Shown: positions 7,245 to 17,808 of the stretch, piece by piece | Layout: every line of letters starts with the position of its first letter | How positions within the stretch are numbered: position 1 is the first letter of the stretch | Source: a virus | Lineage: Duplodnaviria > Heunggongvirae > Uroviricota > Caudoviricetes | Strand: one strand, 5' to 3' | Length of the DNA stretch: 44,188 nucleotides | Virus record (IMG/VR): IMGVR_UViG_2541047701_000003 | Notes under the pieces: model-generated | The model's input: the letters and a program-made list of their open reading frames with translations, nothing else | What the model was told of the DNA's origin: nothing | The model's database searches: none | Program-made: the position numbers and the translations under genes

Positions 7245-7415
7245 TTAAAGTTCGTGTGCCATCTGGTCTTTTTCGGCACAGATTTCACTACAATATTTTT
7301 TCATTTCCGTCGTTGGTATAACTCCACGCATGAAATGAAGTGGTCTTGTAATGATTTTGCTCTCTTCAATTTCTTTATTGCAAAGGTGATAAGCACATTT
7401 TATTTTCTTAGTCAT
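7245..7415 (-). CDS. YdaE-like small zinc-ribbon protein (not in supplied ORF track, below 60 aa)
   Basis: 56-aa [23 protein letters not shown]...CSEICAEKDQMAHEL with two CxxxC pairs; ATG overlaps the kilR stop (TAATG coupling). Confidence 0.5.
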   Translation of the reverse strand: MTKKIKCAYHLCNKEIEESKIITRPLHFMRGVIPTTEMKKYCSEICAEKDQMAHEL

Positions 7416-7636
7416 TACCATGACTCCGCCTTTACAGGTAAACCATCACGACCGAGGAAGACTCTAATCATGCAGTCAGAAATGCATGTTTTTGTAGTCA
7501 GGCTACGAATATAAAGTTTTCGCTTTTTAATATTGTTTGCCGAGGCGATATATGTCCGACCTTCATGAAGAACATAATCGCCAGGGGTCACACACTGACG
7601 TGGTATTTCATCAGTTCCGAAGTGATGAGCAATCAT
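7415..7636 (-). CDS. kilR: KilR-like FtsZ inhibitor (Rac kil)
   Basis: 73 aa from [44 protein letters not shown]..., recalled as near-identical to Rac KilR; GGAG SD before this ATG. Confidence 0.7.
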
Positions 7637-7988
7637 AATTATCTCCATTTTTACAAATGAATTTTGTCGATGCGGTGCCTGGTGCCTCCAGGTGACGTTA
7701 ACCAGTTAACAATTAACGCCGGATAATCCACCCATAACACTGATGCTTTTAACTGTGCCGCGTGCGCTTAGCCGCATTCACCGCATCACAAAATTCACTT
7801 TAAAAAGGGGCGGCAGGGCAGCCACGGAGTAGAACTGATGCCGCCAAAGACTACACATAGCAATGTCGTTATTTACAACCGGAGGCGCACTCCCACCATT
7901 TAAATTTAACAGACAAGACCGACTCTTTATGAATACCGGAAATGCGCCTTCGTGTTGTGCGCCTGTCTTTTTACCACTTCAGGCTCGG

Positions 7989-7997
7989 TGGTATACT
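7989..7997 (+). promoter_or_regulatory. Extended -10 promoter element (TGgTATACT) upstream of the 8032 gene
   Basis: TGGTATACT about 35 nt upstream of the ATG at 8032. Confidence 0.4.
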
Positions 7998-8031
7998 GGA
8001 GTTCTCACACAACCAGTAATAAGGTATTCCG

Positions 8032-8226
8032 ATGGATAATAAAGACAAAGCCTGGCTACTTGCTTTAGCTTTCAGCATCAGATCGCAGCGAGAAACAACT
8101 CATCAAGAATTTTTCTCGGAAATCGAGAATGCTGAGAATGAGTTTTTGTCACTACTCAATGAACGTGATGCTAAAAAAAGCGCCGATTCACTTAAGGCTT
8201 GGGCGAAACTAGGCTCTTCAAAATAA
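8032..8226 (+). CDS. Hypothetical small protein, opposite strand to the early-left operon
   Basis: 64-aa ORF with own promoter-like element; predicted helical/amphipathic. Confidence 0.4.
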   Translation: MDNKDKAWLLALAFSIRSQRETTHQEFFSEIENAENEFLSLLNERDAKKSADSLKAWAKLGSSK

Positions 8227-8410
8227 TTGCTTCTGTAGCGGCATGAACAACTGTTTTTGCCGCCTCTTCAACTTCCTTGTCTGGACGACCAGCCTTTACT
8301 TTTTCTGCAATGACATCCAGCACAGTTGGAAGAACCTTGCTAATAAGCATGGCTGCCACATCTTTGCTGCACAATTGACCGTTAATAACAACCAGATCTT
8401 CACCAACCAT
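8192..8410 (-). CDS. Hypothetical small protein
   Basis: 72 aa from ATG with AAGGGG SD (MVGEDLVVINGQLCSK...); 3' end overlaps the convergent 8032..8226 ORF by 35 nt. Confidence 0.45.
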   Translation of the reverse strand: MVGEDLVVINGQLCSKDVAAMLISKVLPTVLDVIAEKVKAGRPDKEVEEAAKTVVHAATEAIILKSLVSPKP

Positions 8411-8653
8411 CTTTTTTCCCCTTAACGCCGGGTGGCGGAACGTTTTATCTACTGCGCTTTGTATCAATCAACAACTGCCGTCATGTTCGTATGCCTCAGG
8501 CTGGCTACTTAGCCCTGTTCAGTGGCTGGATAACTCGAGGTATTGTCCTGCCGTTCTCTGGTGGGGCGTTGTTTGGATATGCTTATTAAACACAATGCGT
8601 TTTCTTATGTCAACACGAAATGTGTTTTATGGTGAGTGTCATATGATGATGGT

Positions 8654-8679
8654 ACAAAAAAGCCCGCTGATAGCGGGCT
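8654..8679 (-). terminator. Rho-independent terminator after the repressor gene
   Basis: On minus strand AGCCCGC-tatca-GCGGGCT followed by TTTTTT. Confidence 0.5.
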
Positions 8680-8709: not shown

Positions 8710-9129
8710 TTACTCCGGTGGGGGATTATCTTTAAGCCTGCCTCTCAAATATTTTTCTACATACTCATCGATTTCTTTTAGCCGGACTTCAAATAGCTCA
8801 ATCATTCGTTGTTGTTCTGAGCCCGGTAGCTGGTTAAACAACTCAAGAAGTTTTCGTTGGGATTCATTTAACCACAATTCAGAAGATTCCTGTTCTCCAA
8901 ATAGGAGCTCAGGAGGAGATATGCCAAGTGCCTTTCCCAATACGACAGCGTCATGCACTCCAACATTTCTGCTGCCCGCCTCATAGTTACCTATACGCGA
9001 TTGCGTCCATCCGCAGATTTCAGCAAGTTTTCCTTGAGATAAACCAAGCTTCTGCCTGCGCTCTTTAAGACGCATTGCAATTTTGTCATTGAGCCTACTA
9101 GCGGCAATTTTTTCGTTTTCTTTTTCCAT
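8710..9129 (-). CDS. Prophage repressor, XRE-family HTH (cI/RacR-like)
   Basis: 139 aa; HTH LGLSQGKLAEICGWTQSRIGNYEAG; divergent from Cro-like gene across an operator-containing intergenic region. Confidence 0.7.
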   Translation of the reverse strand: MEKENEKIAASRLNDKIAMRLKERRQKLGLSQGKLAEICGWTQSRIGNYEAGSRNVGVHDAVVLGKALGISPPELLFGEQESSELWLNESQRKLLELFNQLPGSEQQRMIELFEVRLKEIDEYVEKYLRGRLKDNPPPE

Positions 9130-9155: not shown

Positions 9156-9225
9156 TTATATAAAACACAAAACAGCTTGACCATATAACACAAGGTGTGT
9201 TTAAAATTGTCATCGGAGGTTTTCA

Positions 9226-15171: not shown

Positions 15172-15325
15172 AAACGGTTTGCGGGAAAAGGAGAGTTAAG
15201 TAGAATTGCTGCGGGTGCTTGAGGCTATCTGTCTCAGGCATGAACACCAAAAGGCAGATAGAGAAAAGCCCCAGTTAACATTACGCGTCCTGCAAGACGC
15301 TTAACATTAATCTGAGGCCCAATCT

Positions 15326-15538
15326 ATGTCTCACAAATGTAGGTTAGCCTCTTACGTGCCGAAAGGCAAGGAGAAGCAGGCTATGAAGCAGCAAAAGGCG
15401 ATGTTAATCGCCCTGATCGTCATCTGTTTAACCGTCATAGTGACGGCACTGGTAACGAGGAAAGACCTCTGCGAGGTACGAATCCGAACCGGCCAGACGG
15501 AGGTCGCTGTCTTCACAGCTTACGAACCTGAGGAGTAA
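15326..15538 (+). CDS. mok: Mok-like reading frame (N-terminal extension of hok)
   Basis: 70-aa ORF in frame with hok, as in chromosomal mok/hok loci. Confidence 0.45.
   Translation: MSHKCRLASYVPKGKEKQAMKQQKAMLIALIVICLTVIVTALVTRKDLCEVRIRTGQTEVAVFTAYEPEE
15383..15538 (+). CDS. hok: Hok/Gef-family type I toxin
   Basis: 51 aa MKQQKAMLIALIVICLTVIVTALVTRKDLCEVRIRTGQTEVAVFTAYEPEE, typical Hok sequence; 5'/3' fold-back complementarity in flanking RNA. Confidence 0.75.
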   Translation: MKQQKAMLIALIVICLTVIVTALVTRKDLCEVRIRTGQTEVAVFTAYEPEE

Positions 15539-17538: not shown

Positions 17539-17564
17539 CTCAATCTGTTATCCGGGGCTATATT
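17535..17564 (+). promoter_or_regulatory. Candidate late promoter pR'
   Basis: TTGACT (17535..17540) - 18 nt - TATATT (17559..17564) directly after Q stop. Confidence 0.4.
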
Positions 17565-17625
17565 CCTCACGCGCCAGCAAAATCTGGCGTCGGGATTGGC
17601 GTCCTGGATAGAGACCGCGACAGAT

Positions 17626-17648
17626 ACACGCCGCGAGCGTGTTTTTTA
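17626..17648 (+). terminator. Candidate tR' terminator
   Basis: ACACGC-cgcga-GCGTGT followed by TTTTTTATT about 60 nt downstream of the -10. Confidence 0.5.
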
Positions 17649-17808
17649 TTGTCGTATGCACGCGCACATCTGAATTATGGTGGGCTGTGTGGGGGCGGAG
17701 AGATCCGCGCCGGTCGGTTTCCCGGTTACGCCAACCCCGCACAGTTCACCACCAGACGATTGGCGTCGTCGGTGGTGAGTTATTAAGAAACCACCAGAGG
17801 GCGTCATT

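Follow-up and report, generated by a model that had tools for sequence, protein, structure and literature searches.

The DNA analysed here, called the window below, is a stretch of 44,188 nucleotides (nt) from the IMG/VR virus record IMGVR_UViG_2541047701_000003 and represents an E. coli prophage of the Rac-like lambdoid kind. Encoded on its minus strand are recE, a racC-like gene, ydaE and kil, and on its plus strand a cro-like gene, ydaT and replication genes. We studied two small convergent genes, encoding proteins of 64 and 72 amino acids (aa), which lie between the immunity repressor gene and kil. A first-pass annotation had described two convergent open reading frames (ORFs) here with a 3′ overlap of 35 base pairs (bp), an extended −10 promoter in front of the 64-aa gene and a strong Shine-Dalgarno (SD) sequence in front of the 72-aa gene. 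Both ORFs and the overlap were confirmed by the ORF list and by identical coding sequences (CDSs) in RefSeq/PGAP, where both products are labelled 'hypothetical protein'. The promoter was found as described, and the SD reads AAGGGG, 7 nt ahead of the ATG. The matching PHROG families, phrog_22868 and phrog_23495, each have the same length as the corresponding window protein and are of unknown function.

Homologues of both genes were found in E. coli, Salmonella, Escherichia sp., Klebsiella and Raoultella. When seven diverged loci were aligned, the 379-nt geometry of the pair was constant, with zero indels or stops, and within the overlap 22 of the 35 positions were invariant, two long invariant runs among them. 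Selection was estimated on the non-overlapping parts in all 21 pairwise comparisons of these loci, with Jukes-Cantor correction for the ratio of nonsynonymous to synonymous substitution rates (dN/dS). In its own frame the 72-aa gene showed a ratio of the uncorrected proportions (pN/pS) of 0.3-0.7 and a dN/dS of 0.08-0.70 where dS was unsaturated. The corresponding values for the 64-aa gene were about 0.1-0.65 and, again where dS was unsaturated, 0.06-0.61; the dN/dS values closest to 1 came from closely related loci that differ by few substitutions. Control frames on the same DNA gave about 0.7-3 for the 72-aa gene and about 0.8-2.7 for the 64-aa gene, and variation was greatest at third codon positions. 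The substitution patterns thus identify both ORFs as genuine protein genes under purifying selection in their own frames. One might suppose that one or both are non-coding, chance open frames, as they are short and carry no family annotation. This idea is contradicted because selection is frame-specific, no indels or stops occur in the seven loci, homologues exist in several genera and the secondary-structure models are confident, and we find it hardly credible.

The pair is present in 27 of 5,426 complete E. coli genomes. Both families are very small: a profile search against 1.84 billion proteins yielded only 16 representatives of the 72-aa family at 50% identity. In addition, species-representative genome contigs, a set without this prophage, were searched with a profile of the 72-aa alignment. 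A weak match of the 72-aa protein in a metagenome-assembled genome of Candidatus Nomurabacteria (candidate phyla radiation; 44% identity over 36 residues) was discarded as probably spurious.

On the repressor side, the DNA carries the elements of an early-left operon. Directly after the repressor gene lies an intrinsic terminator, followed by a pL-like promoter (Table 1). The latter was read from the sequence, as our promoter scan demands an A at position 2 of the −10 element and so skipped TTTAAT. The half-palindromes at this promoter resemble oL operators and are tied to the repressor-cro intergenic region by the repeats D7, D11, D15 and I4. The palindrome AACAC-N5-GTGTT occurs in the 44-kb window only at 8612-8626 and 9187-9201, versus 0.27 occurrences expected. 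In prophages with a different repressor the homology ends at 8581, where transcription is predicted to start. Irrespective of repressor type, each related locus possesses a TTGAC promoter of its own with operator-like repeats, placed 70-170 nt before the 72-aa gene. In two distant relatives (L016 and L017) the 72-aa homologue is directly preceded by a gene for an N peptide (PF25694), which separates it from the immunity region. The promoter, the operators, the repressor terminator, the breakpoint at the start site and the N gene upstream in relatives together show, on the level of sequence, that a repressor-controlled early-left operon begins with the 72-aa gene. This gene is therefore expected to be silent in the lysogen, where it is probably not expressed.

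This operon extends from about 8577 over the 72-aa gene and DicF to kil, with the 64-aa gene and its promoter inside it on the opposite strand. A sequence scan of the minus strand between the 72-aa stop and DicF found no terminator-like site; the early-left transcript is therefore predicted to run across the full length of the 64-aa gene and across its promoter. About 194 E. coli genomes have the leader of the operon, at 75-100% identity, ahead of other first genes, and its motif CCGCYACCCGGCG also precedes rac11 and genes of several further partner families. We considered whether the SD-proximal element of the leader forms a hairpin, but folding gave no support for this (z +1.2), and the idea was dropped.

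These results change the first-pass annotation in several respects. The pair had been placed at the position equivalent to rexAB in lambda, which proved incorrect: the space between the repressor gene and pL holds the terminator only, and both genes come after the pL-like promoter and its operators. Of the likeness to the sieB slot, the antisense placement survives for the 64-aa gene alone, since the 72-aa gene opens the early-left operon; for the same reason at most the 64-aa gene can be called lysogen-expressed. The flanks of about 380 and 300 bp are indeed free of protein genes but not featureless, as they contain DicF, the kil leader, promoters, a terminator and operators. Mutual antisense regulation, which had been deduced from the 3′ overlap, is still plausible, but the antisense region far exceeds 35 bp and takes in the whole 64-aa gene with its promoter.

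The promoter of the 64-aa gene, identified by a consensus scan, is kept in all loci that carry the pair. The surrounding block of promoter and 5′ untranslated region (5′UTR; 7962-8019, plus strand) is nearly invariant from E. coli to Klebsiella, a distance at which synonymous sites are saturated. RNA structure was rejected as the cause of this extreme conservation, because neither strand gave a significant fold there (z −0.6 to +0.2) and no Rfam family matched the block. A search of the 44-kb window for the operator palindrome AACAC-N5-GTGTT returned none near this promoter, and the 64-aa protein is therefore expected in the lysogen. We also rejected the idea that this is the sieB promoter, as homology to sieB-type phages stops near 7955, before the −35 element. 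Shortly behind the 64-aa stop lies a hairpin, and the 66-nt stretch around it (8225-8290) folds with −17.4 kcal/mol (z −2.95). Every locus has such a hairpin, and at two pairs of its stem the E. coli and Klebsiella clades differ in both bases. It may end the 64-aa transcript inside the 72-aa gene, with a weak U-tract for such a function.

Table 1. Features between kil and the immunity repressor gene of the window.
Feature	Coordinates	Strand	Basis or remark
kil, next protein gene of the early-left operon	7415..7648	-	phrog_294 Kil, E 3e-37; PGAP kil
STnc100-like kil leader	7629..7818	-	44.3 bits against a gathering score of 47, E 4.6e-8 (below the Rfam threshold)
DicF-family small RNA, downstream of the pair in the early-left transcript	7808..7859	-	Rfam RF00039, 60.9 bits against a gathering score of 48; own terminator stem
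Predicted 64-aa promoter: -35 TTTACC, 16-nt spacer, extended -10 TGgTATACT	7970..7997	+	consensus scan
Invariant 27-nt block GGTGGTATACTGGAGTTCTCACACAAC (-10 and 5′UTR), left cassette junction	7987..8013	+	unique in the window
64-aa gene	8032..8226	+	ATG start; PGAP CDS WP_001419881.1; phrog_22868, E 5e-47
3′ overlap of 35 bp, coding in both frames	8192..8226	both	ORF list
72-aa gene	8192..8410	-	ATG at 8410 within ORF 8192-8467; WP_000232637.1; phrog_23495, E 4e-50
Hairpin, candidate terminator of the 64-aa transcript	8238..8263	+	12 nt past the 64-aa stop; inside the 72-aa codons AAKTVVHAA
Early-left leader	8411..8581	-	SD-proximal element at about 8446-8417, AAAACGTTCCGCCACCCGGCGTTAAGGGG, is the right cassette junction
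Predicted pL-like early-left promoter: TTGACA 8613-8608, 17-nt spacer, TTTAAT 8590-8585	8585..8613	-	read from sequence
oL-like operators, half-palindromes 8585-8603 and 8612-8630	8585..8630	both	repeats D7, D11, D15, I4
Intrinsic terminator right after the repressor gene	8661..8679	-	8-bp stem with 6 GC pairs, then TTTTTT
HTH_3 immunity repressor	8710..9129	-	Pfam HTH_3, E 5e-13; WP_000410105.1

Downstream of the pair in the early-left direction, DicF has kept its terminator stem-loop in the window, and its 5′ single-stranded 'seed' (UAUGUGUAGUC) is unlike the Rfam consensus (UUcugGUGacaU). Because of this departure, the window DicF may have targets other than those of Qin DicF. In Rac-SA53 and 666R9 DicF scores below the gathering threshold (39-41 bits), and Klebsiella-type loci are without it, so that DicF is not an obligatory neighbour of the pair. 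The STnc100-like leader is conserved in all related loci, including the Klebsiella-type loci that have no DicF, and may be a regulatory 5′UTR of kil.

Neither protein could be named by the first-pass annotation, and our hidden Markov model (HMM) searches likewise matched no named family at threshold. The possibility raised there that they are sieB fragments was not borne out, as Pfam, PHROG, NCBIfam and PADLOC gave no SieB match for either protein. The 64-aa protein is hydrophilic, and its AlphaFold2 model (mean confidence, pLDDT, of 75) has helices at residues 3-19 and 24-61. The window protein itself had no Pfam match at E<=1, including PF15930 (YdiH), a domain of unknown function (DUF). The alignment of its family was compared by hhalign with K-12 YdiH (b1685), which gave a probability of 74% (E 2.9e-5, 49 columns), and with the related protein of locus L019, which gave 88% (E 3.4e-6). 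Against PF15930 the L019 relative scored 22.6 bits (E 1.2e-4) and that of L016 13.9 bits, with a gathering threshold of 27 bits. YdiH agrees with the 64-aa protein in length, in helical pattern and in the positions of the motifs LA..F, EF..LL and AW.LG. It is, unlike the 64-aa gene, encoded by a chromosomal core gene without an annotated convergent partner. We describe the 64-aa protein as probably a remote relative of YdiH; as YdiH is itself a DUF, this link yields no mechanism. Homology to rac10 or to the gene found in the same place in L018 was rejected, as none was detectable.

The model of the 72-aa protein (pLDDT 80) consists of a beta-hairpin at residues 6-15 (strands 6-9 and 12-15) and two helices (16-39 and 44-67), and the first helix is of borderline hydrophobicity (19-residue Kyte-Doolittle maximum of 1.61 at residues 17-35). 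The protein does not qualify as an N antiterminator, a group marked by the N_peptide domain (PF25694) or an arginine-rich motif, and no Pfam family matched it. Its C-terminus resembles that of rac11 by eye (VEEALEKLIAAADAII versus VEEAAKTVVHAATEAII), but the similarity is not significant (E 0.2), and homology was rejected. Homology to YdfC was likewise rejected, despite its equal length of 72 aa.

The region between the immunity repressor and kil had been regarded as a variable slot for accessory genes, and this was well founded: other contents occur beside the same or a near-identical repressor and leader. With the same or a near-identical repressor and leader (8406-8581), the slot is occupied in L022 by a ydaG-like gene, ydaF and a convergent sieB. 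O157:H7 has the same type of repressor and leader with a DUF1391 gene and Rha and without a plus-strand gene, and Rac-SA53 carries in this slot rac10 and rac11, which are convergent and overlap by 39 bp. The variable part between the two junctions is essentially the two ORFs. The 27-nt block at the left junction is common to the window, Rac-SA53 rac10 and L018, whose cargo is an unrelated protein of 80 aa. We searched IMG/VR for exact matches to the 27-nt motif GGTGGTATRCTGGAGTTCTCACACAAC, in which R stands for A or G at one position. It was found in 102 contigs, and in 99 of these an ORF begins no more than 70 nt downstream. The cargo ORFs form at least 16 unrelated clusters of 55-148 aa, and a Pfam scan of ten representative cargo sequences gave no match at the gathering threshold. 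A convergent ORF overlaps the 3′ end of about 70 of the 99 cargoes by 4-179 bp; for 14 the nearest convergent ORF stops 30-83 nt short of the cargo stop, and for 15 none was called. The partner proteins are modular and combine recurrent N-terminal domains with variable C-terminal parts. Among contigs L024-L125 the N-terminal modules include ELKHVIALLLEDAKRLQQ..PNAGTEARIW and M.F[KR][DE]LP..VQ.IAAQ.LA, and the cargoes comprise, among others, zinc-ribbon proteins and a rac10-like 'L(T/S)(P/E)EQR' group. The comparison of these loci shows the boundaries of a two-gene accessory cassette (about 8020-8415), which, as far as can be read from the aligned DNA, sits in a recombination slot between two conserved expression junctions.

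The promoter itself could be the key element, as the promoter/5′UTR block greatly exceeds both coding sequences in conservation and is independent of the cargo. It lies between pL and the toxic DicF and kil genes and is directed towards pL, so that convergent transcription would serve as an RNA-level brake in the lysogen and limit the leakage of early-left transcription into DicF and kil, with the ORFs as mere passengers. Against this speak the clear purifying selection on the 64-aa ORF as a protein, the intact cargo ORF behind the motif in 99 of the 102 contigs and the lack of significant RNA structure on either strand of the block. We consider this explanation very unlikely.

We propose instead that the pair is a toggled cassette of a cognate effector and its self-immunity partner. 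In the lysogen, pL would be repressed and the 64-aa gene transcribed from its own operator-free extended −10 promoter. Upon induction or infection pL would fire, the 72-aa protein would be made first, and the operon would continue through DicF to kil, ydaE, recE and beyond. Read-through from pL over the 64-aa gene and its promoter would silence this gene by transcriptional interference and antisense pairing. Each gene would thus be on only when the other is off, which amounts to a toggle between lysogeny and lysis. Switches of this logic have been demonstrated by experiment for sieB/sas/esc in P22 (PMC12197685) and, in inverted polarity, for tha/ith in S. aureus phages (PMC11087260). The 64-aa protein would be the lysogen-expressed effector, acting in exclusion of incoming phages or in host modulation, and the 72-aa protein an early-lytic partner that neutralises it, so that the phage escapes its own product. 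The parts of this proposal differ in strength. The architecture of the locus is well supported by the sequence comparisons, the life-cycle toggle is likely, given the predicted promoter activities, and the effector/self-immunity relationship and the role in defence are plausible. For the model as a whole we estimate a probability of roughly 45%.

That the two proteins form a cognate pair was inferred because both families stay together across deep divergence. A 72-aa-type domain accompanies YdiH-like cargo in five diverged lineages, namely the E. coli type, the Klebsiella type, L016, L019 and L024. The overlap is 29 bp in L016, which has N upstream, and 83 bp in L019, and in L024 the 72-aa-type domain is fused behind another N-terminal domain (hhalign probabilities 76% and 54%). 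Several observations weigh against the model. Locus L017 has a 72-aa homologue without a convergent partner, L018 couples the 72-aa domain with unrelated cargo, and YdiH is encoded in the chromosome by a solitary gene. Co-inheritance could result simply from the 3′ overlap together with the conserved junctions. The PADLOC-DB 2.0 models of defence proteins matched neither protein at E<=1, and no similarity of either protein to toxin or antitoxin families was found. The fold searches proposed in the first-pass annotation returned only generic helical hairpins for both protein models. Finally, both promoters are consensus readings from the sequence.

Some of these points favour a reading in which the genes are independent, the 72-aa gene serving host takeover in the early-left operon and the 64-aa gene being a lysogen-expressed moron. 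They would be linked by their overlap and by recombination at the junctions, without any interaction between the products. Both junctions are conserved and common to many cassettes, so that the interior is one unit of inheritance; the 72-aa family occurs without the 64-aa family in L017 and L018, YdiH is found alone, and the modular partner proteins have N-terminal domains that are common to several cassettes. On the other hand, the 72-aa-type domain and the YdiH-like cargo are still paired at about 25-30% identity, and the pairing persists without the conserved leader (in L016 with N upstream; L019 and L024 also differ there). Such an association outlasts the usual neutral linkage in mosaic lambdoid genomes. 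Independence of the genes is thus possible, but to us somewhat doubtful.

The roles within a cognate pair could also be reversed. The 72-aa protein would then be a takeover factor harmful to the host, possibly membrane-associated, and the 64-aa protein an antidote that protects the lysogen from leaky pL activity or from the copy of a related superinfecting phage. The joint inheritance of the two families would fit this, as would the borderline hydrophobic helix of the 72-aa protein and the host toxicity of DicF and Kil, its neighbours in the same operon (PMC10448788). The lack of any toxin or antitoxin domain and the convergent layout, which is unlike classical type II operons, make us regard this arrangement as quite unlikely.

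If the proposed toggle of effector and self-immunity partner is correct, the cassette would represent one of the alleles of a small slot with two promoters, in which lambdoid prophages carry life-cycle-switched accessory genes together with their own antidotes. Taken further, the slot might be a diversity-generating locus of cognate effector/early-left partner pairs in lambdoid prophages of Enterobacteriaceae. The effector, transcribed in the lysogen from the invariant promoter, would block or abort infection by related phages that do not bring the matching early-left partner, and this partner would also spare the resident phage upon induction. The 16 or more cargo families and the convergent partners that co-vary with them would be alternative exclusion/escape specificities, with the 64-aa/72-aa pair as one of them; this is a speculative extension that we hold to be unlikely. 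If the neutral linkage is right, the pair merely adds two further hypothetical prophage genes. The 27-nt motif gives in any case a handle on more than 100 cassettes and at least 16 uncharacterised small-protein families for defence and anti-defence screening. The main value of the locus is as an entry point to this cassette family rather than as a demonstrated defence system. Rac-like prophages are present in most E. coli genomes.

Further elements were seen elsewhere in the window and in relatives. The RalA antitoxin small RNA (sRNA) lies at 2168-2346 on the plus strand (219 bits) and indicates a ralR/RalA type I toxin-antitoxin system in the prophage, as in Rac. The sRNA pair SraC/RyeA and SdsR/RyeB was found at the left window edge (462-606, both strands), a stretch that is probably chromosomal and marks the neighbourhood of prophage integration. 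A sok antitoxin RNA (15213-15388, plus strand) points to a hok/sok-type locus, and isrK with the C4 antisense RNA and its a1/b1 targets (17558-17756, plus strand) to a P1/P7-like c4 immunity element. Locus L005 (PP818812.1, 'Actinobacillus phage vB_Apl-pPE4') is near-identical to E. coli Rac-like DNA over kil, leader and repressor and is without the pair; its host attribution looks doubtful.

Among known systems, lambda rexAB shares a transcript with cI and is located between that gene and pL. Our pair resembles it as an accessory function near the immunity region, but is downstream of pL and shows no sequence similarity. In a Klebsiella michiganensis prophage (L006, 1992-3791), genes of 79, 204 and 140 aa follow the repressor gene on the same strand, before a pL-like promoter. 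A Pfam scan gave no match to any of the three, which by their true rexAB-type position are candidate lysogen-expressed genes. Type II toxin-antitoxin systems differ in that their genes form a co-directional, autoregulated operon and those of the window are convergent, and no toxin or antitoxin domains were found here. The Qin dicBF operon (ydfA-ydfB-ydfC-dicF-dicB) is controlled by a repressor and has small ORFs before DicF and a cell-division inhibitor (PMC10448788). The window has the same arrangement of a repressor-controlled early operon with small ORFs ahead of DicF and a cell-division inhibitor; YdfC, encoded just upstream of dicF, is not homologous to the window 72-aa protein, and no credible convergent ORF was found at the corresponding site of Qin.

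Within the Rac group, K-12-type Rac carries sieB, ydaF and ydaG in the same slot. Rac-SA53 rac10/rac11 is alike in slot, left-junction promoter, SD-proximal leader motif and convergent overlap, but neither window protein is detectably homologous to rac10 or rac11. The general idea of an antisense, lysogen-expressed early-left gene beside the immunity module is already known. This pair and a many-cargo slot between two conserved junctions appear undescribed, as the literature searched held no published description of these proteins or of a promoter-anchored slot.

The closest parallels are found in two systems with antisense-coupled genes. In P22, sieB/esc/sas is expressed by the prophage and coupled to the life cycle by antisense, and Esc shields the phage from its own exclusion (PMC12197685). 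The layout read from the window is similar to that of sieB-esc-sas in P22 and lambda: the 64-aa gene likewise has its own promoter and lies antisense in the early-left operon beside the immunity region. Moreover, sieB fills the same slot in L022, a prophage with a near-identical repressor. The SieB product has 162 residues, in contrast to the hydrophilic, soluble 64-aa protein and the 72-aa protein here, and there is no sequence similarity. Esc is an internal translation product, whereas the candidate antidote of the window is a separate convergent gene. The tha/ith system of S. aureus prophages is an antisense 'noncontiguous operon' in which a small gene overlaps an operon on the opposite strand and makes the two states of expression mutually exclusive; it combines a lysogen-expressed defence with a lytic-cycle inhibitor and so avoids autoimmunity (PMC11087260). 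The window resembles it in that the 64-aa gene with its own promoter is embedded antisense in a longer operon, as judged from the layout. The polarity is different: there a lysogenic cI operon is combined with an antisense inhibitor, here a lytic operon with a presumed lysogenic antisense gene. The window proteins are also unrelated to Tha and Ith and have no HEPN domain, and the host belongs to another clade. If our model holds, 'autoimmunity avoidance by antisense architecture' would apply to Rac-like prophages as well as to S. aureus phages and P22 sieB.

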